Source: Stramenopiles sp. TOSAG23-2
Taxonomy: Eukaryota
Assembly: GCA_900128395.1 (NCBI GenBank)
Contig: LT649269.1
Coordinates: 1-50,325, forward strand
DNA: 50,325 bases
Direction of reading: 5' to 3'
In this document: in pieces, positions 3,360 through 49,138 of the stretch
Numbering within the stretch: the stretch's first letter is position 1
Layout: each line of letters begins with the position of its first letter
Translations under genes and position numbers: made by a program
Notes under the pieces: model-generated
What the model was told of the DNA's origin: nothing
Database searches by the model: none
What the model saw: only the letters and a program-made list of their open reading frames with translations

Positions 3360-6188
3360 CTATAATCTCGTGTTCGCACTAACTGCACTACCAGACGCAC
3401 TATCCACGTCACTTAAAATAGTACCAGTAACATGATATGTATCTGCAGCTCTACAAATGAAATCCAAATTTGTCCCAGCTTTTCCAGGCTTAGTACCATC
3501 ACCAGCTTTTAAATATATAGCATTTGCACCTGATGCCATAACAACACCTTTTGTTTTATATGCTTGTGTATCTTCGGCTAGATATACAAAACCAGAAAAA
3601 ATGTCATTGAGCCCTCCAACGATGGTATATCCAGCGCTAGAACTTTCTAACAATATATGCAATTCAAAATTCCAACCTAATGACGATCCACTGCAATCAG
3701 GCAAAGTTAATGTAAATCCATCCGCTGAATTAAGCAAAACTTTCGAGCCAGAATCAGTTGATGTTAATGTAGTTTGAGCTGTCAGTACTTTCAAACCCCA
3801 ATAGGAGCTAGACAACCCATCCGAATGTCCAAACCGTATATTATCCATTATAACGTCGCCATTGGTTGATGTAAAGGTCAAATCATTGCCAGCAGCACCT
3901 GTATGCGTCATTGTTGTCGCACTTGTTGTAGTTAAAAGGATATCACCCCCAGAATTTGATATTCCGCCAGCAACTATATCAAAATTTCCTGTAACAGTAC
4001 TATCTTGAGCAGCGTGTATACCACCACCAGCAATCATGCTCCCATCACCTTTAACCGACAGTGCATCTGTACCACTCATGTTTTGGTACCAAAACTCAGT
4101 TGCCCCATCTGTTCCATGCGCGGCATAGGTCCAATTTATTGCATTGAAGGTAGTGATAAAGTGCATAAATTCGAATGTATTAGCACTGGCAACGGTAGTG
4201 GTCATTTTTAATAGAGACCCTGTAAATGAACTACTAGCTGTTTGTGTAACAATCATGGCGTTTCCATCAGTGACCGCCAGTCCACTTGTAAAATTGGTAT
4301 TGATTTTAGCATTGAAATATACCAATGGAGTTCCACTTCTTTGTGTTTGATCAATACTATAATCATGTGCCGACAATGGCATTGTTTGGGTTGATGCTTT
4401 TAATGTCGGAAAAACAGTTTTTAAACTGGTGGACATTGTTAATGCAAATGCACCACCAACGTATAACTTTTTTCCTACTGCTAATCCACCAGCTGCAATC
4501 ATCGATCCAGTCAGCTTGTTAGTAGCAGCTGTAGTTATTTTTGAAACCAACGTGCCGACATACAATTTTTTTCCAATTCCAAATCCACCCGTATGCGTTA
4601 ATGTTCCCGTTGTTACACCTGTGCTTTGAACTGTTGAATATAATGCCAACTCTCCAGCCCCAGTCAGTCTGAAGAGTGATGCACCGTTTGCACTTCCCTG
4701 TATCACATTGTAAGCAGCTTCAGTTCCAGTCCCAAGCGTTTCTATTAAGCTGGTATCGTATGTATTGCCAAGGCTATTATATAAACGAACTATCGCGGTA
4801 TTAGACGTCGGTGCATCTAAGGTAATGTGAGATGTCACATTTATTGAATTTCGCAGTCTAGTATCACGCATCGCTGCTAACGTTATATTTCCCGTGCTTG
4901 ACTTCATTCCCCCCAATGCAACTGTTGCCACTCCATCCCCTCGTATATCAACACATTTTTTCGTCCCATGCAATACCGAGAAAAAGCTAAAGTCACTCTC
5001 CTTTTGTTTCTTCGTCTCCAATATCAAAGCGTCTCCTGTATACGATGTATGTGTGAAACTTACAGCTTTCCCTGTAGCATTCTGTACCTCAAGAGCATAG
5101 ATATGATTAAACCTATCACAGTTATGGCCGAAAAATTCATCAGCACAAGTGCATTCCCCAGTTGTAAAATCACATGTACCACGGGCAGAACATATATCAT
5201 TTCTGTAAGTCCCAGTTTGAACATCTGCCCAAACACATGTTGGATCAGTTGCACCAGCATTGTACACTTGACAATGAAATAAATTTATATCCGGTACCCC
5301 ATCATGGTTATATATATTATTTTCCTGTGGTTTTGTTGGCCATGATGTAAACGTAATAGAATATACTGCCCCATTGGTGTTTGTGTCAACCGTGCCTCTT
5401 GTAACATCAACAGTTTTTATATTGCCTAATGCTTCTAGTTCGGTCTTTAAAACACTTGCCGTCGCTGTGTTTGCATTTGAATCTAGGAGAAAATAATGGC
5501 CATAAAATCCTATTCTAAAAGTTCCCGTTAACGCACCACTAGCTGCTCCAGTGGTTAGTTTCACAATATGGTAAACAGTCTCGTTTGTCGCAGGATCATG
5601 CCCCCTTGGACAATTTATTATACTACAATCTGGGCCTAGAAAATTCCAATCGCATATACAACCGTGTGTAAATGGTCCATCCCATAATGAATATAACATA
5701 CCTGTCCCGTCACCATCTGGATCAAATCCTTCTTGTTTTGAAAAATCATTCATGCTGATGCATCGGCCTTTACTATTACAATCAAAATCGCTCACGGTTG
5801 GACACACATTCATTTCGCAAGCGGTTCCTTTGAATCCTTCCATGCATTCGCATAAACCACCAGCACCGCACTTACCAACTCCAGAACATACTACTTCAGT
5901 ATCGTGTGGTGCAGAAATAGTTCGAGTTTTTGAGAAAAAATAAGGACCTTTTGGACAATCACGTTCTGAACAGTCAGGTGCACGACGAAATCCTGTCGGG
6001 CAATCGCAATGGTAACCATTGTGTGCAGTTTCGTTATATCGACATATGCCGATACCACTGCATTCATTTGGACAATCATAAGGCATCCCTTCACTAGAAG
6101 TATGAAAAATATTTGCGTTAAACACAAATACAAAAATATATAAAACTGTTACATTCAGAAACTTACTACAGCCTTTTGTCATTGTCAT
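3360..6188 (-). CDS. Secreted mastigoneme-like (Sig1/Ocm-type) tenascin-EGF protein with Gly/Thr-rich fibre-like C-terminal half
   Basis: Signal peptide; CPNECSGxGxC, DCSERDCPKG, YxxWD..GCICDW and CPRGHDP motifs; paralog of 7093-9984. Likely start MTMTKG at 6188. Confidence 0.75.
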   Translation of the reverse strand: MTMTKGCSKFLNVTVLYIFVFVFNANIFHTSSEGMPYDCPNECSGIGICRYNETAHNGYHCDCPTGFRRAPDCSERDCPKGPYFFSKTRTISAPHDTEVVCSGVGKCGAGGLCECMEGFKGTACEMNVCPTVSDFDCNSKGRCISMNDFSKQEGFDPDGDGTGMLYSLWDGPFTHGCICDWNFLGPDCSIINCPRGHDPATNETVYHIVKLTTGAASGALTGTFRIGFYGHYFLLDSNANTATASVLKTELEALGNIKTVDVTRGTVDTNTNGAVYSITFTSWPTKPQENNIYNHDGVPDINLFHCQVYNAGATDPTCVWADVQTGTYRNDICSARGTCDFTTGECTCADEFFGHNCDRFNHIYALEVQNATGKAVSFTHTSYTGDALILETKKQKESDFSFFSVLHGTKKCVDIRGDGVATVALGGMKSSTGNITLAAMRDTRLRNSINVTSHITLDAPTSNTAIVRLYNSLGNTYDTSLIETLGTGTEAAYNVIQGSANGASLFRLTGAGELALYSTVQSTGVTTGTLTHTGGFGIGKKLYVGTLVSKITTAATNKLTGSMIAAGGLAVGKKLYVGGAFALTMSTSLKTVFPTLKASTQTMPLSAHDYSIDQTQRSGTPLVYFNAKINTNFTSGLAVTDGNAMIVTQTASSSFTGSLLKMTTTVASANTFEFMHFITTFNAINWTYAAHGTDGATEFWYQNMSGTDALSVKGDGSMIAGGGIHAAQDSTVTGNFDIVAGGISNSGGDILLTTTSATTMTHTGAAGNDLTFTSTNGDVIMDNIRFGHSDGLSSSYWGLKVLTAQTTLTSTDSGSKVLLNSADGFTLTLPDCSGSSLGWNFELHILLESSSAGYTIVGGLNDIFSGFVYLAEDTQAYKTKGVVMASGANAIYLKAGDGTKPGKAGTNLDFICRAADTYHVTGTILSDVDSASGSAVSANTRL

Positions 6189-6921
6189 AGTACTAACAGT
6201 AAAAATATTATATATATACATATATATATATTATTATTAAAAAAGAGAGAGGTCCAATATTTTAGTTACTTCTTACAAGCATTATTATATCAACGGAGTG
6301 TGTTTAAATGTAGTAGATGTACTATGTTGATTAGACTATGAAAAAAAATTTCTTCACACGTCGAAAAATAAATTTTACATTAAATGTATTATTATTTATA
6401 ATATATAATAATATAATACGCCACCAAAAAAAAAAAAACAACATCATAATAATATGATGTGTGTCGAGGTGTTTGATGATGGAATATGTATGCTGGTAGT
6501 ATGCTGGTATATTAATAATAGTAAGGCTTTAATGTAGTTTGTATTTGTTACTTTTTGCATTTTATACTACGATATCTGGTAGTTAAATATACAACCTACA
6601 ACCTATTAAGAAATTGTATTAATATAGCATTCCACAGCATTCCAGCTTACAGCATTTTAATTTGTAGCAGTTAAAAACTTGAGCAGCGATTCCTTCAACG
6701 TGATTGGATTATGAAAACTGACATGCTGACAGCAATAGAGCCTCTTGTATTTTTTGATGAGGAATATTAATAAATGGGTGCAATGCTGGCCCGGCTGGCC
6801 TGGAATAAATAACAGGAAAAAAATATCATCAGATAGAAGAAGAATATTATTAATACCACCAACGCCTAATAAATCATATATAAGTAAATATAAATATACA
6901 CATAAATATACAGAGAACCGT

Positions 6922-7092: not shown

Positions 7093-9984
7093 ATGTCAGG
7101 TTTAAACGTTTTTGTGTCGTCATTTTTTTATATAGTACTATTGTTAGTGGCATATTTTGTATTACCGTCATCTTCACATTGCCCAAACCTGTGCAGTGGC
7201 CATGGAAGTTGTAATGCAACTGACAGTTGCACTTGTTACGAAGGTTGGGATGGAGCAAGGGACTGCTCCCTTCGCGATTGCAAAAGAGGTATAGCATTAT
7301 TTTCGGCTGGTACACATACAACAACTGATAATAATATGGCAGAGTGTTCCAATGCAGGAATTTGCGATAGGTTTACTGGTTTTTGTGTTTGCAAAATTGG
7401 ATTTGTTGGTCCGACTTGTGAAAGGCTAACATGTCCTCCATATTCAGAGGAAGGGGAAGAAAGTGTCGACAATATATGCAATGGCCACGGTACCTGCACA
7501 AGCATTTACGATGCTGGAACTAGGCATGGAGCAGATACAACGGATGGGACAATAGGTGATGGACTTGGACCAGCATACACTGGTTGGGACAAAGACTTTA
7601 TTCACGGCTGTGTTTGTGAATGGGGTTGGGGTGGAAATGATTGTACTTATAGGCTATGTCCGAAGGGTGATGATCCGTTGACGACAGGAACCAATTTGGT
7701 ATTTACGATCACTACCAATGTTGCATCTGGGTCATTGGCCGGATTATGGACTTTAAAATTTGTTGGTCATGAGACAACATTCGAGGCTGACGGTAGTGCA
7801 TTGGCAGATGCAGCTTGTGCAAATGCGATAATGGCGTTGTTGAATGTTGAAACGGCAACTTGTGTCGTTTCTAATGTTGATGGTACCACAAAGGCAGCAA
7901 CAATGACGGTAACAATTACAAAATATCCTGAGCTGGTATTTGAAAATAATATATATAGCCATACTGGCTCACCTGCATTGTCTCAAATATCATGCACAGG
8001 TGGTTTAATAACGTCATCGCCGACAACACCCAGTTGTACCATAGCAATTACTACTGCCGCGACAAATGAATATGCAACTTGTTCAAATAGAGGTGTATGT
8101 GATTTTGCAACAGGGTTGTGCACATGTGGTACAAACTATTATGGCTCTTCATGTGATACACGTGGAACAACGCAGGAAGTTGATGATGCCGCCGCAGCTT
8201 TAATAGTGTCGTCAACAGGTGATTCGTACACAGGTAATGTGATGGAACTTTCTACTACTAGATCGGCTTCATCAGATTTTAATTTTTTAAAAGCAACTGC
8301 TTCTGGAGCAACTGTTTTTAGCATCCAAGGAGATGGTCTGGTCAAAATGACAAATGGTTTAAACATTGAAAAGGGTGGTATAACGCTTGAATCAGGTGGA
8401 ATTACATTAAATGATGGTGTGATAGAAGTTTATGATGATTCAAATAATGCCCTGTTGAAAGCAGGCGCGATAAGCGCTGCTTATACCGGAAACATTTTGC
8501 AATTGGATACAAATAGTGGTAGTTCAACTAATTGGAATTTCTTGAAGTTTAGTAGTGATTTTGTAAACACTGGTGGAACGCAGCAATTTAAAGTCGATGG
8601 CACAGGTCAAGTTTTTATAACGAGTACAGTAGATAGTACCAGTACAACAACTGGGTCATTTCAAACGACTGGTGGAGCTGGTATTGCAAAAACATTATAT
8701 GTCGGAGAAGGTGTTGTTTCATTAGATACTACTACATCGACATCAACAACCACTGGTTCTGTCATTGTTGCTGGCGGCCTTGGTGTAGCAGGTAATTTTT
8801 ACACTGGCGGTGGCATTGTTGTTGAAGATGGTGGTGCGTATTTTGCCAACAGCGCTACTGGGGACGTCGATGTTGTTACATTAACGCAGACTGATAGTGA
8901 TGGATTTACAGGATCTGTTTTGCGATTAGAGGCAACACAAGGATCTGCTACTACATATAATTTAATGGAAGCCTATAGTTCCATAGCCGGTACCCCTGCC
9001 GAAGTCTTTACCATCAGAGGTGATGGGAAAATTACAATTACAGGTGCCTTGTCCGTAACTTCCGGAGGTTTAAATATTACTGCTGGTGGCTTATCAGCCA
9101 CGGGAAACATCGCTTTTGCAGGGGGTGGTATTACAATGTCATCAACAAGTGCACAAGCAATTACTCATACAGGGGCGAATGGTGCTGATTTGACTGTGTC
9201 ATCCACCAATGGTGATGTCTACGTTGAATCAGTTAAAATTAGTGGACATATGATGACGGGCCATCATTATGAAGTTGAAACCATAGGCGTAGATAGGACA
9301 CTTGTAAATAGCGATTCCGGGAAGCGATTTTATCTGAATAATGCTACAGGATTTATCGTTACTTTGCCTGAATGTACAACTAGCACTTTAGGTGCATTTT
9401 TTGAATTCGATGTTCTTGTAGATACGCAGGTAGGGCATTTTGTTCGTTGTTCGGGAACTGATACCATAATAGGTGGTGTACAAACTGTAACTCTGTCTGA
9501 TTCCTTCTACACTGCAGCTGTTGCTGGTGCTCAACAACTTGATTTTCGTGGGCATGGGTTGTGCAGTAACGTTTATGCAACACGGACATGTAAATTGTGG
9601 GCAACAGCAACTTATGGAAATGTAACTAATTGTGATGACAATCCTTGTTCTAATGGGGGAAGTACTTGTAGTGGACTTTTGGCTAACAATTTTGAAGAAA
9701 CATATACAGAGACGTGTACAATTGATCAACAACATTTTTGCTATTTATTAAATACAAAAGCGGCTTGTACTACCCAAGGGGAAGTTGCGGGTGCAAGTAC
9801 GTCAGATGACTTTAGAACAACACCTCAAGTATGGACCAATGGTCCCGGTGGAGACCCTGGGACACGCGTCATGTTAACATGTGTTGCTGATAAAGTATGG
9901 TATGTATCAGGTGTCGTGCTTACTGATGAAACGACATCAACTACGGAAGCTGCTGCATTTACAAGTACGGTTAGTAGACTTTGA
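7093..9984 (+). CDS. Secreted mastigoneme-like (Sig1/Ocm-type) tenascin-EGF protein with fibre-like C-terminal half
   Basis: Signal peptide; CPNLCSGHGSC, ECSNAGICDR, YTGWD..GCVCEW, CPKGDDPLT and CSNRGVCDF motifs typical of stramenopile flagellar-hair proteins. Confidence 0.8.
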   Translation: MSGLNVFVSSFFYIVLLLVAYFVLPSSSHCPNLCSGHGSCNATDSCTCYEGWDGARDCSLRDCKRGIALFSAGTHTTTDNNMAECSNAGICDRFTGFCVCKIGFVGPTCERLTCPPYSEEGEESVDNICNGHGTCTSIYDAGTRHGADTTDGTIGDGLGPAYTGWDKDFIHGCVCEWGWGGNDCTYRLCPKGDDPLTTGTNLVFTITTNVASGSLAGLWTLKFVGHETTFEADGSALADAACANAIMALLNVETATCVVSNVDGTTKAATMTVTITKYPELVFENNIYSHTGSPALSQISCTGGLITSSPTTPSCTIAITTAATNEYATCSNRGVCDFATGLCTCGTNYYGSSCDTRGTTQEVDDAAAALIVSSTGDSYTGNVMELSTTRSASSDFNFLKATASGATVFSIQGDGLVKMTNGLNIEKGGITLESGGITLNDGVIEVYDDSNNALLKAGAISAAYTGNILQLDTNSGSSTNWNFLKFSSDFVNTGGTQQFKVDGTGQVFITSTVDSTSTTTGSFQTTGGAGIAKTLYVGEGVVSLDTTTSTSTTTGSVIVAGGLGVAGNFYTGGGIVVEDGGAYFANSATGDVDVVTLTQTDSDGFTGSVLRLEATQGSATTYNLMEAYSSIAGTPAEVFTIRGDGKITITGALSVTSGGLNITAGGLSATGNIAFAGGGITMSSTSAQAITHTGANGADLTVSSTNGDVYVESVKISGHMMTGHHYEVETIGVDRTLVNSDSGKRFYLNNATGFIVTLPECTTSTLGAFFEFDVLVDTQVGHFVRCSGTDTIIGGVQTVTLSDSFYTAAVAGAQQLDFRGHGLCSNVYATRTCKLWATATYGNVTNCDDNPCSNGGSTCSGLLANNFEETYTETCTIDQQHFCYLLNTKAACTTQGEVAGASTSDDFRTTPQVWTNGPGGDPGTRVMLTCVADKVWYVSGVVLTDETTSTTEAAAFTSTVSRL

Positions 9985-28030: not shown

Positions 28031-28624
28031 AAATTTTATTTTTATGATCGATTGCGTTGTGTTACTATGTTGCTTTGTATAATATATATACAGTATATGT
28101 CATTTGTATAATAAAGTCTTTTATAATGTGATTTAATTAAATATTTAGTAGTACTGGAGTACATATATAATAATACTACTAATAATAATATATATCAACT
28201 ATAATAACAACTATTATAATAAAAGGCACCAAAACCGAAAAGACTGTGGCAACCTGGCAATGTGGTGTGGTGAAGTAACGCTTTTCCTTTTTTGGCACTC
28301 TAACTCATCATCCACACCTACAAAATGTAAATAATAACGTTACCAGGTGCTCTATATCGTATTACCGCATCGAGTATTCATTTTTGATAAAATTATATAT
28401 TATATATAAATGATAATACTCGATCCATCTAATGAAAAATAAGAAAAACTCCACCCCCTCAACAACAAACAAGGATAATAAATAAAATCTTTTTTATTTA
28501 AATAATTTAAATATACACTATACTATATATTGTGATATTTCCACAAGGAAAGAACATACATACACAAACATATATATTTGTATAAATTGTGAAGTAATAG
28601 CAACGTTAATTTTAAAGATAAAAG

Positions 28625-29083
28625 ATGCAAGAGAATACACATTTTGCGGTATTTGGTGCTGGGTGATTTTGGAAACCCCAATTACGTTTTGATAAAGTAA
28701 ATGGGGTTGTTGATACTAGAGTTGGTTATACTGGTGGACAAAGTAATAATAAACCTAGTTATAAATCTGTATGTAGAGGGGATGGGCATACTGAAGCCAT
28801 TTTAATTGAATATGATCCAACCAAGGTAACATATAGGAAATTATTGTCTATATTTTTTGATATGCATGATCCATTAAAAGAGCAAAAAACACAATACTCT
28901 TCATCTATTTTTGTATGCGATGAAGAACAATTAGAAATAGCAGAAAAAGAAGTTTATAAGTTAGGTCCACAATGTACTACGTTTGTCGAGCCTTTGACAT
29001 CCTGGACGGATGCTGAGAAAAAGCATCAAAAATATTATGAAAAGAAAAAGAAGAAGAAATCTATGTTTAAACGTAAATTTTAA
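28625..29083 (+). CDS. msrA: Selenoprotein methionine-S-sulfoxide reductase A (152 aa, Sec at TGA 28664-28666)
   Basis: ATG 28625 reads MQENTHFAVFGAG-TGA-FWKPQLRFDKVNGVVDTRVGYTGG..PSYKSVCRGDGHTEAILIEYDP..HDP..QYSS..AEKKHQKYY. It is in frame with the listed 28844 ORF, and the TGA sits at the catalytic Cys position of GCFW. Confidence 0.9.
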
Positions 29084-29547
29084 ACATATGCTTGGCTATT
29101 TAGTTGGAGAAAAATGAATTTTATTCAAATGAAAGCTAAAAATCGTTTTCACCACATCAACGCACATGACATGTTTTTTATTTTTTTTTGTAAATATTTC
29201 CATATATAATATAATATGATGATTTTATGAAAAAACATGTAATGTGGATATTGTAAATTATTAATAAACAAGACATCATATACCACGCATCACATTAACA
29301 ATGATAAACAATTATTGGAAAAACAAACATCAATAATAAATATATAAAAATTCTCCATCCATTGTATAGACGGAAGAGATGGGTATTAAAAAAAACCAAT
29401 AATTGTTTTGAGATCAAACACAACACAACAAATATAATTATTAAAAAAATAAAATGTGAAGAAGCGCGTAGGGGTGATGTAACCGGGGATTATAAAATTA
29501 TTCCTAAAATATATTTGTAACTTGTTACATACAACAATACTCGTAGA

Positions 29548-31269
29548 ATGAAAGTTTCATATTTCCTACCCCCTACCCCCGCCGACTACGCGACCCCGAG
29601 AATTGATAATAATAGCAATGAAGAAGAAGAACATGTTGAAGAAATTGAAGAGCGTCCAGCTAATTTACCAGGTTCTCCACATCCATCATCTCGTTTACGA
29701 TCAAACATGGAATATGATATAAGTGCCAATCGCAATACAACATTGTCTCCAACTCAAACATTAATGGTTGATTTAAATGGTAAAACATTACTTAATTCAC
29801 CTTCTTCATCATTATTGTCACCATCTATTACATCTCCGTCCAATGAGGATGATGATACGGTTGTTAATAAAAGTAAGAAAAAATATAATAAGAAAAAAAA
29901 AAAGAAGAAAAAGAAGAAACCTAATAAGAAAGGTAATAATGATGATAATAGTAACAATAATGAGGAGCAAGAAGTAAATGACGATGTATCTTCAACTACC
30001 AATACTGCTAATAATAATAAGAAGAAGAATAAAAATAATAAAAATAATACTGAAACAAGTAACAAAACTGTTGATGCGTTACAATCTAGTGTTGATAAAT
30101 TAGATGTTAATACAGATGAGAAAAAAGATAGTAACCAGAAGAAGAAGAAGAAGAAGAAACCAGGAAGGAAAAAGAAACAACAGCGACAGCAAAAGATACA
30201 GAAAGAAGAGGAGAAAATTCAAAGTGAAAAAACGATGGACGATGCTGCTGCTAACAATGCATCAGTATTATTAGCAGAGGAAGAGGAGGGTGGTTCTGAT
30301 GTGAAATCTAAAAGTAAAAAAGCAAAATCAAAAGCAGCTGCTAAAAGAAGAGCTAGACAACGAAAAAGAGCTAGGCAGAAAAAACAACAGCAGCAGAAAA
30401 ACATGGAAGCGGAAGAAAAGGAAGGGACAAAGGGGTCAAAAACAGATGTAAATGAGGAAGAAGAAGCATCAGTAGAGCCTGAAGAGCCAGTCGTTAAAAA
30501 CGTGCGTTTTAAAGAAGTCATTGTACGCGAATTTGAACGTGAAATTGGTGGTGGTGGTGGTGTCCCTGGACAAGGATCATGGTCCCTTGGATTAGGTACA
30601 TTGAAAAGTGAATATATAATTGGTACTGTTGATGAATTTGAAGCAAGGCGTGCAAAAGAACTTGAAGATCGTACAAATGAATTATCGGATCCACATTTAC
30701 GAAAAATTTGTAATGGAGAGACTAGACAATTTAGCCATCGATCTGGCGCATCCAATCCTTTAATGGGTCGTCGTAGTGAAAAAGAACGGAAAGTAATATT
30801 AAAGGAAAACATATTAGGCACAGATGATGAAAGTATTCTTGTTGATGAAGATGTTTTTAATGAAAAAATAGCGGAAGATAAAAAGGAAGTATATGCATTA
30901 AGAAAAAGTAGACAACATGCAAACCAAGGTTGTGATTGTAGTTTGAGTAATGCGAAAAAAATTCCAACAAAAAAATTAAAAGAATTATTAAGATTCCATG
31001 GTATCGCATTTGATGAAGAGAAAGATAAAAAGAAATCTGTTTTGCAAAAGTTATATATTGAAGAAGTCTTACGAAAAATTGGTTCTTGTTGTGATAGAAA
31101 TTGCCAATGTTTTGTCCTCGGTGTGCCATGTCATGACGTGACATGTTTATCATTAACTGCTAGAAGAGCAAAAGATAAAATTAAATGTGCGAATCCAAAT
31201 GGTTGGTATAAATATGATCCGGATCTTGTAGAAAAACATCGAATGATTTATTGTGGTAGAGCAATATAG
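29548..31269 (+). CDS. CSRNP-like cysteine/serine-rich nuclear protein
   Basis: KNVRFKEVIV..VPGQGSWSLG; LRKSR..GCDC; C..CQC...GVPCH..C..CANPNG..YDP..VEKH; Lys-rich NLS tracts. Confidence 0.65.
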   Translation: MKVSYFLPPTPADYATPRIDNNSNEEEEHVEEIEERPANLPGSPHPSSRLRSNMEYDISANRNTTLSPTQTLMVDLNGKTLLNSPSSSLLSPSITSPSNEDDDTVVNKSKKKYNKKKKKKKKKKPNKKGNNDDNSNNNEEQEVNDDVSSTTNTANNNKKKNKNNKNNTETSNKTVDALQSSVDKLDVNTDEKKDSNQKKKKKKKPGRKKKQQRQQKIQKEEEKIQSEKTMDDAAANNASVLLAEEEEGGSDVKSKSKKAKSKAAAKRRARQRKRARQKKQQQQKNMEAEEKEGTKGSKTDVNEEEEASVEPEEPVVKNVRFKEVIVREFEREIGGGGGVPGQGSWSLGLGTLKSEYIIGTVDEFEARRAKELEDRTNELSDPHLRKICNGETRQFSHRSGASNPLMGRRSEKERKVILKENILGTDDESILVDEDVFNEKIAEDKKEVYALRKSRQHANQGCDCSLSNAKKIPTKKLKELLRFHGIAFDEEKDKKKSVLQKLYIEEVLRKIGSCCDRNCQCFVLGVPCHDVTCLSLTARRAKDKIKCANPNGWYKYDPDLVEKHRMIYCGRAI

Positions 31270-39031: not shown

Positions 39032-40328
39032 TCATCTATTCCGATGAATATGTATCAAATATATATATATATTGAGTTTTCCATTCATATATTCATACAT
39101 TATTAGATGGTGGTGGGCACGTGGGTGGTGTGGCAATATTATTAAATATATAAGATTGGGCTTACTATAGCATAGGAATAGCATTCAGTCAAGGTGGTAG
39201 ACCTAATTAGGACACCAAAACAGAATAAGGGGATGCCAGCAGCTAAAAGCATAATGTTGTGCAAAATTGCATTCAGATTTCATTATAAGTCAAGGCCTTA
39301 CCAGCAACAATACTACTTCTTTGCATCTTCCTTCTTTTGTGCGGGTGAAGCCAACGACGGGTGAAGAAGTAGAAAGTAATTGCGGTCTAACAACACCCGC
39401 GCGGCTGAAGCCAACGACGGGTGAAGAAGTAGAAAGTAATTGCGGTCTAACAACACCCTCGCTGTTTCATCTTTGTCTTCTTGTTCACAAAGTTTAATCC
39501 AATAACTAATATCACTAAAACCTTTTTTGGTTGTGGTAAAACTTCCTCAAATTTTTATATTTAAATGAATGATATAATGAGATAGCAAATAATTCATTTG
39601 TTGGAGAGGCTTGCATTTCAAGGCATTTGTTTGTCTCATCCAATTCATAGTGCTTTCTGCAGCAGATGAATCAGACTTGCCTCTTATTTCATATTTGATG
39701 TTGGTCCATTCTTCTGGATCTGTGATCCACAGATATTCCACCAGTTGGTCATATGCTTCTGCCACCTCCCCCTGCCTCCCATCTGAAATTTCTAATGATA
39801 CATATTGTTTGTTTTCAGTATCATGATAATAATTAACTAGGTTAATATTTACTGGAAGTTTTACCCTTTCACTCTCTCCTAACCTTTCATTCATTGCGAC
39901 ATTTGCTTTATTCATGGCACTAGTGGTGTACTTTGTTTGTAATATTAATGGATGTGTGTAATATTTTTCTTTTAAGAATAACTGATGATTATACAGAAGA
40001 AGGAAATGCAGCAGGTAGTGGATTTGCGCTGTTGAATATAATGTTTGAATCACTTGAATGGTTTGGAGTAAATTGTTTCCAAATAGATAATGGTTTATTT
40101 GGGGCACTCAAGAATAATTCTCCTCATTTTAAATAATACATGAAATATTAGCAAAAACAGTATATATATATACATATATATACATTGTGAAGCTGTAAAA
40201 TGTCTTAATTAATTAGATATCAATCATTCTATAAGTGTTAAACTTGTTTGTTGTGGTTTTGTTGTTCATATAAAAGTAATTGTAAAATTTTTTTTCTTTT
40301 TGAAAGTAAATGGCAAACTTTGCAATTT

Positions 40329-40800
40329 TTATATTCTTTCATTGGCATAAACCATGTTGTTTATGATGTCTGTAATATTTAATAACATATTGCGGAGACC
40401 TAGGAATACAACTTTCAATAGTGGCTTTGTCAAGATATCTGCGATATTTTTAGCACTAGCTATGTGCTCAAGCTGAATAATTTCTCTGTCAATTAGTTCA
40501 GTAATAAACATATACTTGATTCCGATATGTTTGGACAAGGCGTCCACGTGGCGCATACGATCTATATTAGCTGTTCCATTTGCAATATTTTGTGCTGTTT
40601 GATTGTCGTTTAATAAGATTGAAGGCAACGGGAATGGACTTTGAAGGAATTCTGCAAGCTTGGAGAGCCATAGTATCCATATGCACATTCGGATAAGGCG
40701 CAGAACTCAGATTCTGTGACTGACATAGTCACATTACGTTGGCGTTTGGACTTTGTTACAACGGGTCCATTCATATATAGCAATACAAATCCGGTAGTAC
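40329..40800 (-). mobile_element. Degenerate Ty1/copia LTR-retrotransposon RNase H fragment (frameshifted)
   Basis: TGFV..NGPVVTKSKRQRNVTMSVTESEFCAL in one frame, then DNQTA..SKHIGIKYMFITE..NIADILTKPL in another. Confidence 0.85.
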
Positions 40801-41333
40801 ATGTATGAATGTACATGACATATATGTTTGGGAATAGTTCCTCCACTTTTGGTGTACAAACATATGTGGACGTTCCTCATTCTATAATATGGAGATACTA
40901 TTGGATAATGATATTCGTATGGTATTGTCGATAGACAGTGATGGCTATATAGCAACAGAACTCTCTCTGAATTTAGATTGTGGACAAGTGCAAACAAACA
41001 AAAACATAAACAACACAGAAAAAAGCAACAAAATGTGGGGGAAAATTTAAACAAAAAGACAATACAAGGGTTTAAAAAAAATTCTTGTTTTTAACGTAAA
41101 TTTAAAATATAAAATATCCTACATGACGCATCTTCAATCTCTCTCCCAGATTCCACTTTCAACATTTTTCTCTCTTTAACTTCTCTCTAATTGCTTTTTT
41201 TTATTTTTTTTAGTTTTTGTATTTTTTTCACCTCTTATTTAATATCATACCTTTTTATATTATTGATTTGAAAATTCAAACGGGTTCGGTTGACTACCAC
41301 TAGCTAATATATTTTCATTTGTTGATAGTACAT

Positions 41334-46990: not shown

Positions 46991-49138
46991 TTAATATCCT
47001 TCAAATTTTGGACTTTCAGAATGATGTCCAAACAACATATCTTTGTATTTTGGATATGGCCACAAATCATCCTCGCATACTACTTCTGCAGCATCACATT
47101 TTGCGCGCAAATTTTCCATTGCATCTCTTATTTCGTATTGGGAATATTTTGCTTGCTCAAGTGGGGAACCATCTTCAGGGAAGTTGTGCAAAACGTTCGT
47201 AAAGTTACCAACTTCTTTATCCAATTCAGCATAAACACTTTGTCTGCTTGCACCCAAGCCAGTTCCTTCAAAATTTTTTAAATCTTGTGCACATGCTGGT
47301 AAAACACCGGTTTGTATCATTTGCAACATAGTGTCGGCTTCGATGCCAATATCAGCAGTAAATTTTTCTGCCATGATTTCTTGGCGTGCTTCCAATTCTT
47401 CATTTGTGAAAACGTTCATACTTGAAAATAATGCTTTGTTTTTATCAGATGCCATTGTTGCAGCTGCCTCGTATGTATTTTTCAAATTTTTCAATCCACG
47501 TTTCTCAGCTTCAATTGGCCATTCATCACTGTAACCATCGCCATTGAAAATAACATTAATATTTTCAGCATACGTGTTGGCAACTGCATCGCGTACGGAT
47601 TCACCACCTTCAATACGATCACTCAATGCTGCCATTGATTCAGCATATGCTGTATTTACAATAGCCATAGGGAATGCAATATTTTGTGTTGAGCCAACAG
47701 CACGAAATTCAAAACGATTACCGCAGAATGGGAATGGTGCTGTACGGTTACGGTCTTCCATATTTGCAGTGATTGGGGAAACATTGTTGCTTCCCACCTC
47801 GATGGTAGTTGTATCCATACCATAACCATGCAATTCACCACCATCCATAACTTTACGGATATGAGCTTCCATGCCATCACCAGTGTAAAGGGAAATGATA
47901 GCTGGTGGTGCTTCTTGTGCACCCAAACGGTGATCATTACCACTACATGCTACACCAGTACGAATGATATCCCCGTGCGTATTCAATGTTTTTGCAAGGA
48001 CTGCAACCATAGCAGTGAAACGTGCTTGTGCTTCGTCCGTTTTACCTGGAACAAATAAATTGTCACCAACATCGGTATTTAAACCCCAGTTATTGTGTTT
48101 TCCACTACCGTTGACACCTGCAAAAGGTTTCTCGTGCATCAAACATACTAAACCATGTCTTGCTGCGACTTCTTCTAAGATTTCCATACACATGGTATTT
48201 TCATCAGCTGCAACATTTGTTAATTTGAAAATAGGCGACAATTCATATTGACTTGGGGCAACTTCATTATGGAACACAGACATAGCAGATCCAGCATCCA
48301 ACATTTCTTTTTGCACATCATCTAAATATGCACGTACCCTTGGATCTGTTTTGTTGAAATAATTATAGTCTGTTTGCTGACCACGTGGTGGCTGTGCACC
48401 AATTACAGTTCTGTTACATGCCATCAAATCAGGTCTTGCTAAATATGCTTCACGATCAACCATGAAAAATTCTTGTTCCCAGCCTACATTTGCAACAACT
48501 TTAGTTGGTTTATCGTAACCTAAATTCTTTAACAAACGCAAACCTTCTCTGTCTACGCATTCTTGAGAACGCAATAAAGGAGTTTTATCATCCAACGCAT
48601 CGCCGTTATGAGTAACGAAAGTGGCAGGTATGAACAAAGTTCCACCACGAACAAAAGGTGCAGATTGACGATCCCAATTCATAAATGCAGCAGCACGATG
48701 GGTTTGCCTTAATCCACCATTAGGGAACGAGGAACCGTCGGTTTCGTTAAAGAACAATTTTGATCCAGAGAAATCATGAACAACATCTTTGATGACACCG
48801 CCATATTGGCCTTCACCACCGAAGTCATAGTCAATAAATGCATCATTTTTCAAGCCATTCGCTCCACGTACTGCTGAGAACCAATGTGCATAGTTGGATG
48901 CACCTCTTTCCATAGCCCAAGCCATCATTTTCTCTGCGAGTTCATTTGCACATTTTTTGTCCATACTTTCACCACTATTAAGTGCTGCATGAAAATTGTT
49001 GTATGTATCTGCTGAAACAGCATCTTTCATAGCATGGTCATCAAAACGATTGACTCCGATACTGGATAAATTAAGTGTTGAAAACAGAGATTTTTTTCCT
49101 GTAGATTTCACAACTGATGTTGAAACTTTGCTTAACAT
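46991..49138 (-). CDS. glnN: Glutamine synthetase type III with putative mitochondrial presequence
   Basis: DGSSFPNGGLR, GWEQEFF, HNEVAP, HEKPFAGVNGSGKHNNW, RLGAQEAPP, DRNRTAPFPFCGNRFEFRAVGS; S/K-rich N-terminus lacking acidic residues. Confidence 0.95.
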   Translation of the reverse strand: MLSKVSTSVVKSTGKKSLFSTLNLSSIGVNRFDDHAMKDAVSADTYNNFHAALNSGESMDKKCANELAEKMMAWAMERGASNYAHWFSAVRGANGLKNDAFIDYDFGGEGQYGGVIKDVVHDFSGSKLFFNETDGSSFPNGGLRQTHRAAAFMNWDRQSAPFVRGGTLFIPATFVTHNGDALDDKTPLLRSQECVDREGLRLLKNLGYDKPTKVVANVGWEQEFFMVDREAYLARPDLMACNRTVIGAQPPRGQQTDYNYFNKTDPRVRAYLDDVQKEMLDAGSAMSVFHNEVAPSQYELSPIFKLTNVAADENTMCMEILEEVAARHGLVCLMHEKPFAGVNGSGKHNNWGLNTDVGDNLFVPGKTDEAQARFTAMVAVLAKTLNTHGDIIRTGVACSGNDHRLGAQEAPPAIISLYTGDGMEAHIRKVMDGGELHGYGMDTTTIEVGSNNVSPITANMEDRNRTAPFPFCGNRFEFRAVGSTQNIAFPMAIVNTAYAESMAALSDRIEGGESVRDAVANTYAENINVIFNGDGYSDEWPIEAEKRGLKNLKNTYEAAATMASDKNKALFSSMNVFTNEELEARQEIMAEKFTADIGIEADTMLQMIQTGVLPACAQDLKNFEGTGLGASRQSVYAELDKEVGNFTNVLHNFPEDGSPLEQAKYSQYEIRDAMENLRAKCDAAEVVCEDDLWPYPKYKDMLFGHHSESPKFEGY

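Follow-up and report, generated by a model that had tools for sequence, protein, structure and literature searches.

A predicted selenocysteine-containing methionine sulfoxide reductase A and candidate selenocysteine insertion elements on a contig of Stramenopiles sp. TOSAG23-2

Here we describe a gene for methionine sulfoxide reductase A (MsrA) that carries an in-frame TGA at its catalytic codon and lies on a 50,325-nucleotide contig of Stramenopiles sp. TOSAG23-2 (LT649269.1, assembly GCA_900128395.1, forward strand), the whole of which is referred to below as the window. The locus is very probably an intact, intron-less nuclear gene for a short-form MsrA whose catalytic residue is predicted to be selenocysteine (Sec), encoded by UGA at codon 14. 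We favor this explanation because the domain and the fold are intact across the TGA, which otherwise serves only as a stop in the window, because homologues with Cys align at the site and members of the protein's own clade show there either a Trp or a truncated N-terminus, and because a core and helix resembling a Sec insertion sequence (SECIS) are found within the 3' untranslated region (UTR). A hidden Sec-containing MsrA with UGA at the catalytic site had been proposed earlier from the letters of the DNA alone, and this original prediction is supported by the domain and fold, the genetic code, the homologues, the clade and the SECIS-like element.

The reading frame runs on the plus strand from the ATG at 28625 to the TAA at 29081-29083, it is preceded by another in-frame TAA two codons before the ATG, and it contains a single TGA (Table 1). 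When this codon is read through, the product begins MQENTHFAVFGAG-U-FWKPQ..., while the 79-residue open reading frame (ORF) obtained with translation table 11 (28844-29083) corresponds to the tail of the same frame. The earlier statement that a complete MsrA is interrupted here by nothing except the TGA at 28664-28666 held well, as the read-through product matched the Pfam family PMSR (PF01625) with E=6.3e-40 and 137.3 bits (cut-off 23.7) as a single match that runs across the TGA and takes in positions 2-150 of the 153 in the profile. The motifs VGYTGG, PSY, GHTE, QY and HQKY, likewise named in advance, are all kept. In an alignment of 66 sequences G13, F15, W16, G27, G34, Y46, E57 and Y91 are invariant, and the residues upstream of the UGA (13 in all, among them HFAVFGAG) are conserved among relatives. 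An intron excising the TGA, which had been raised as a possible refutation, was ruled out, since the frame is continuous with the homologues and the alignment unbroken through the invariant G-x-F-W.

The best solved relatives by sequence are the chains of Clostridium (Alkaliphilus) oremlandii MsrA, CoMsrA (PDB 4LWJ, 4LWK, 4LWL, 4LWM, 4U66 and 4W8C; E=3.7e-27), which are also among the best by fold. The U of codon 14 aligns with Cys16 of CoMsrA, and because the PDB titles of those entries read 'methionine sulfoxide reductase U16C', CoMsrA is a natural selenoprotein. It contains Sec natively, and its Sec form reportedly exceeds the Cys form 20-fold in activity (PMC4333827). CoMsrA's active site is listed there as GCFWG, Tyr47, Glu55, Gln89, Tyr90 and His137, Tyr140 being part of the hydrophobic region, and residues Y46, E57, Q90, Y91, H134 and Y137 of the window protein align with Tyr47, Glu55, Gln89, Tyr90, His137 and Tyr140, respectively, several of them being invariant or almost so across the 66 sequences. 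The AlphaFold2 model built from the same alignment had a mean predicted local distance difference test score (pLDDT) of 96.2 and a predicted template modelling score (pTM) of 0.89, with helix 1 beginning at residue 16. Foldseek returned 45 PDB matches at E<=0.001, with TMq of 0.82-0.86 to solved MsrAs (for 4lwj, TMq 0.83, root-mean-square deviation 1.3 Å and 41% identity); the matches listed are all MsrA or MsrA/B, including 7c13, which is titled otherwise and was named MsrA in the sequence search. By its family, its active-site alignment and its modelled fold, the rolled mixed beta-sheet with flanking helices typical of MsrA, the predicted protein is an MsrA.

Both enzymes have a short loop before QY without an NRQGxDxG insert, and both share the FW-x-P-[DQ] motif. 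They differ in architecture: CoMsrA is a bacterial protein of 209 residues with a C-terminal five-helix domain (145-209) essential for activity, and it belongs to the 1-Cys type, being free of any Cys (PMC4333827), whereas the window MsrA has C50, C98 and C117 and stops at residue 152, its end being a basic helix, without the C-terminal domain of CoMsrA, like many MsrAs of 150-160 residues. Matches to the CoMsrA chains of 205-217 residues end at chain residue 145, with TMt 0.62. As judged from its sequence, the predicted protein is outside the two-domain, 1-Cys class of the CoMsrA type. Among its cysteines, C98 and C117 are conserved in close relatives and C50 is found family-wide. The basic C-terminal tail, likened earlier to a nuclear localisation signal, forms in the model the closing part of the final helix (residues 137-151) and is common to close relatives, which are denoted here by P-numbers (EKKKKKKSIFKRRF in P0004; EKRAVLKRKH and EKRAILKRRRKK in others). 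Two features that had been called unusual proved to be ordinary. The KPQ following FW belongs to the normal range of the subfamily, with GCFWKPQ in P0175 and P0227, GWFWKPQ in P0172 and P0007, and GCFWGPD in CoMsrA, and 152 residues is a usual length among short MsrAs, as many hits have 150-160.

A word-indexed protein search returned 49 proteins, and among 1.84 billion representatives searched exhaustively with HMMER, 11,419 matched at E<=0.001, the best 150 of which were surveyed at the catalytic column. Cys was present there in 131 of these 150, Trp in five, and Ala, Ser, Asp and Arg in one each, the remaining ten beginning past the site; the TGA thus occupies the place of the catalytic Cys of GCFW, in agreement with the original prediction. 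The closest relative, P0002 (99% identity; its cluster comprises 33 sequences from 4 contigs), has a Trp where the window has TGA. The same residue was noticed at the site in P0008, P0003 (74%), P0007 (71%) and P0010 (49%), and P0004, P0005 and P0009 begin downstream of it; all told, besides P0002 and P0008, Trp occurs in six relatives and a start past the site in 12. Biochemically, a Trp in place of the nucleophile makes no sense and would inactivate the enzyme. Most likely, the Trp of these relatives is a TGA translated by the gene caller with a TGA=Trp table. P0007 additionally has a non-homologous C-terminal extension with nine Trp in about 95 residues, as expected if TGA in non-coding sequence was read as Trp.

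The distribution of these forms was followed on a tree comprising the query, the 150 hits, P0003, P0004 and P0009 (154 rows, none dropped) and made with FastTree, a fast method giving only Shimodaira-Hasegawa-like (SH-like) local support, with the catalytic column left in. One clade of 48 rows (SH-like support 98), characterized by an FW-x-P-[QDE] motif, takes all five Trp forms and P0003, together with all ten N-terminally missing forms, P0004 and P0009, and neither kind of form is found among the other 106 rows. The 12-row clade of the window protein (support 98) includes three Trp forms, seven truncated forms and one row with a doubtful Cys, P0173, with the N-terminus SCFLSC and a HMMER match to the query starting only at residue 19; no clear GCFW form was found in this clade of 12. 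Such a pattern fits a long-standing Sec clade and not a private nonsense mutation.

Two individual relatives deserve a separate mention. P0006, a protein of 154 residues, combines a Cys-type N-terminal half (GCFWGIE) with a C-terminal half identical to that of the Trp form P0003, and may be either an artificial chimera from the assembly or a paralogue with Cys that has sequence in common with the Sec gene. P0005 departs from the MsrA frame within the A-rich tail (…AEKNIKSILKKKRRKR…) and continues in what is, in the window, the +1 frame ORF 29010-29117 (plus strand), which suggests that a homopolymer A run differs in length, whether in reality or through a sequencing error.

The TGA has to be weighed against other ways of explaining a stop codon at this place. 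If UGA stood for one of the standard amino acids (Trp under table 4, Cys under table 10), or were passed by near-cognate read-through, the residue would not be Sec; the database gene calls of the relatives do give Trp at the site, and table 10 would turn it into a plain catalytic Cys. A survey of 19 long ORFs, with 11,117 in-frame sense codons, speaks for a different use of the triplet: TGA is absent in frame and occurs 753 times off frame, TGG (87) and TGT/TGC (184 and 79, 263 jointly) are in normal use, and the ORFs end in TAA (12), TAG (3) or TGA (4). With no in-frame TGA and four of the 19 ORFs ending in it, UGA is therefore a stop here and no general Trp or Cys codon; outside codon 14 of MsrA, UGA in the window is a stop. 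Within the MsrA frame, W16 and W127 are encoded by TGG and the three Cys (C50, C98, C117) by TGT/TGC, and a Trp nucleophile would leave the enzyme inactive, so that decoding as a standard amino acid or by near-cognate read-through is hardly credible. Another rival is a pseudogene or an error, in which a recent nonsense mutation, or a mistake of sequencing or assembly, changed TGT or TGC into TGA and no functional protein is made. The TGA is one substitution away from each Cys codon and no canonical SECIS was detected, as this explanation would have it, but the rest of the frame is flawless, the catalytic residues are all kept, the non-Cys state recurs as Trp in the 99% identical cluster and in the relatives at 74%, 71% and 49% identity, and the 12-row clade is without a clear Cys form. 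A lesion confined to the catalytic codon across a diverged clade is unlike decay, and we consider this explanation very improbable.

Several observations weigh against reading the residue as Sec. The equivalence of Trp and TGA is shown only for the window and P0002. Rfam scans gave no SECIS family at gathering score in the whole window, and none at E<=10 in 28300-29800, 29190-29275 and 29285-29430; the matches that Rfam did report were weak and at chance level (microRNA, small nucleolar RNA and similar models). A Sec-MsrA necessarily implies Sec machinery in the genome, as the original prediction had also reasoned, and the 50-kb window contains 0 tRNA genes, hence no tRNA-Sec, and no domain of the Sec machinery (SBP2, eEFSec, PSTK, SepSecS, SPS) in its 19 long ORFs, one window being uninformative on the genome in both respects. 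As for further candidates, out of 28 TGA-interrupted frames (at least 89 codons, 1-2 TGA) MsrA is the only one known to match a family across the TGA; besides it only 39313-40107 was sent to Pfam, with nothing above the cut-off.

Table 1. Coordinates of the MsrA gene, its in-frame TGA and the SECIS-like sites in the window
Feature	Position	Strand	Description and basis
MsrA coding sequence	28625-29083	+	152 codons and TAA stop, intron-less; Pfam PMSR, AlphaFold2, Foldseek
In-frame TGA	28664-28666	+	codon 14, proposed to encode the catalytic Sec of G-[C/U]-F-W; sole TGA in frame
Candidate SECIS A (weaker)	29216-29249	+	AUGA 29216-29219, imperfect 9-10 bp helix, AAAAAA loop 29230-29235, GA 29247-29248, U29249
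Candidate SECIS B	29301-29412	+	A29301, UGA 29302-29304, U29305; own scan, inverted repeat I3, minimum free energy (MFE) folds
Candidate B helix 2	29306-29318 / 29396-29408	+	13 Watson-Crick pairs
Candidate B apex	29319-29395	+	77 nt with small hairpin; A run 29319-29323
Candidate B 3' core	U29409, GA 29410-29411, G29412	+	
Second ATGA / helix / GA site	40815-40870	+	12-bp helix; 56 nt, typical SECIS size

Eukaryotic Sec decoding depends on a SECIS in the 3' UTR, bacterial decoding on a hairpin in the coding region. A hairpin is also present inside the MsrA coding sequence (28674-28707, plus strand; AACCCCA...UGGGGUU with an inner 4-bp stem), starting 8 nt past the UGA, and it was rejected as a bacterial-type SECIS or recoding stimulator, as its local fold lacked significance (z -1.82; 12 of 200 shuffles did equally well).

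The 3' UTR was examined with respect to the published SECIS consensus, which includes an unpaired A, the invariable UGA/GA, 11-16 bp in helix 2 and several consecutive As (PMC2647825). Both strands of the whole window were scanned for ATGA followed by a gap-free helix and then GA, and two sites were found. The first of them in the sequence, candidate B, begins 218 nt past the MsrA stop on the coding strand and agrees with the consensus in these four respects, its helix 2 having 13 bp and the As following directly on its 5' strand; its likeness to the canonical SECIS (Rfam SECIS_1; SECISearch, SECISaln) extends to the N.K position, which is U.U. In 200 first-order Markov sequences, sites of this kind with a helix of at least 13 bp were expected by chance at 0.035 per window on both strands, which corresponds to about 1.6e-4 for a single strand of the 464-nt intergenic stretch, and an empirical estimate (64 real stems of at least 13 bp, with the observed frequencies of ATGA and GA) gave about 0.06 per window. 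The helix is present in the MFE fold of the local region as well as in that of the whole 3' UTR. Origin from a repeat or a mobile element was rejected, as the 23-nt 5' arm occurs only once in the window even when up to 3 mismatches are allowed. On balance we lean slightly towards candidate B as the functional SECIS. We are somewhat less ready, a little short of even confidence, to accept the more specific description of a functional element composed of a kink-turn core, a 13-bp helix 2 and a 77-nt, largely unpaired, A/U-rich apex, of the kind that standard filters reject.

Candidate B departs from known elements in several respects, all of which count against it. In the published search pattern the As follow the ATGA at 10-13 nt and the GA follows the As at 15-39 nt (PMC2375036), and the corresponding distances here are 14 nt and about 89 nt; SECISearch3, moreover, drops candidates with an overlong apical loop (PMC3753652). 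The 3' core reads UGAG where the consensus has KGAW, there is no evident helix 1, RNAfold favors Watson-Crick pairing of UGAU with AUCA over the kink-turn, and the fold z-scores are unremarkable (-1.75 for the local region, -0.70 for the apex and -0.56 for the entire 3' UTR). SECIS of Ostreococcus, Chlamydomonas and one of Dictyostelium have been described with long apical mini-stems (PMC2375036), and the apex of candidate B, being mostly unpaired A/U, is unlike these. MsrA SECIS are of type II in all species examined (PMC2647825), with a short helix 3 and loop in contrast to the 77-nt apex. It may be that MsrA is a real selenoprotein, which overlaps with our main conclusion, and that its functional SECIS is not B but candidate A or an element not recognised as such. 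Candidate A was the best of 27 pattern matches in a canonical-geometry scan of 29060-29640; its spacing is canonical (10 nt and 15 nt), its core, AUGAU/GGAU, fits exactly the consensus UGAN/KGAW (PMC2647825), B breaks the apex-length rule that A obeys, and Rfam reports neither of the two. On the other hand, the upper stem of candidate A reaches only -1.0 kcal/mol against a published cut-off of -3.7 kcal/mol (PMC2375036), its helix 2, interrupted by a mismatch and a bulge, has about 9-10 bp, under the range of 11-16 bp, sites of its quality occur at the chance rate (8 observed, 7.39 expected per window), and in the MFE fold a 17-bp stem takes up its 3' strand, whereas the helix and core flanks of candidate B have a chance probability of about 1e-3 to 1e-4. 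For its chance-rate occurrence and marginal stem, candidate A was rejected as the preferred SECIS, and a functional element other than candidate B seems to us rather unlikely.

The stem that takes up the 3' half of candidate A is an inverted repeat at 29163-29246 (plus strand; 17 nt, 94% complementary, arms 50 nt apart), which forms in the MFE fold of the whole UTR. Its 5' arm holds an ATGA with no GA opposite, so it is not SECIS-like.

The other site of the scan, at 40815-40870, is taken as a chance occurrence, since no plus-strand TGA-containing gene with family support was found upstream of it. It counts against candidate B too, in that such sites do occur without a selenoprotein gene upstream. 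The site is antisense to minus-strand ORFs at 40329-40846, in which Pfam finds nothing and which, by the motif ...ADILTKPL, resemble the end of a copia-type pol.

In the mechanism that we propose, the ribosome would insert Sec at UGA14 by means of tRNA-Sec, eEFSec and SBP2, directed by the SECIS in the 3' UTR. Sec14 would then attack the sulfoxide of methionine-S-sulfoxide, free the methionine and turn into selenenic acid. Recycling might proceed through a resolving Cys (C98 or C117, conserved in the clade, or C50, found across the family) and then thioredoxin, or else directly by glutaredoxin/glutathione, as in the 1-Cys CoMsrA (PMC4333827). Both the insertion of Sec and the selenenic chemistry are drawn from what is established for eukaryotic Sec decoding and for MsrA.

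Chlamydomonas is among the organisms that have a Sec-containing MsrA. The enzyme is a selenoprotein also in Ostreococcus (O. tauri) and in the stramenopile Thalassiosira (T. pseudonana) (PMC2375036), and it is counted among the most widely distributed algal selenoproteins (PMC7539508); together with the bacterial CoMsrA (PMC4333827), this bears out the earlier remark that Sec-MsrA is already known from algae and bacteria. By their description, the algal and diatom enzymes share with the window MsrA the family, the position predicted here for Sec and an aquatic protist host. A Sec-MsrA in itself is thus expected biology, established in aquatic protists and some anaerobic bacteria, and the long-apex SECIS is the one feature that could be new.

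The gene is of a kind easily mis-annotated as a fragment of 79 residues or omitted altogether, and its relatives in the databases are visibly mis-called, with Trp at the active site or truncated starts. A Sec-MsrA would mark the organism as a selenium user and predicts the full Sec-insertion machinery and further selenoproteins in its genome. As the apex of the sole SECIS candidate with statistical credibility is long and non-canonical, the locus offers a test case for SECIS variation in AT-rich protists. Should candidate B be functional, the tolerance for apex length would be far above that of current models, and if its architecture were moreover common to the lineage, SECIS-first pipelines would under-count selenoproteomes systematically.

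With regard to its surroundings, the window has a GC content of about 0.28-0.41 and long uninterrupted ORFs every 2-3 kb on both strands, and the domains recognised in them are eukaryotic (FANCL, FOP/LisH, IQ, EGF/teneurin-like repeats, an ABC transporter, a MutS homologue, a lipid-droplet hydrolase and glutamine synthetase type III). Together with the relatives of the glutamine synthetase III, these features weakly suggest an AT-rich, gene-dense and intron-poor marine protist, probably a stramenopile. The downstream neighbor of MsrA (29548-31269, plus strand) encodes 573 residues with long low-complexity runs of Lys, Asn and Glu and a Cys-rich C-terminus, and no Pfam family was found in it. 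Two divergent ORFs of about 950-960 residues, at 3360-6221 (minus strand) and 7093-9984 (plus strand), carry teneurin-like/EGF repeats towards the N-terminus and are otherwise free of recognised domains. The glutamine synthetase III gene (46991-49138, minus strand) has its best named relatives among protists, at 50-56% identity, including the stramenopile Mucochytrium quahogii, and its product falls in a 100% identical database cluster of 51 member sequences, so that the same or a near-identical organism has been sequenced elsewhere.

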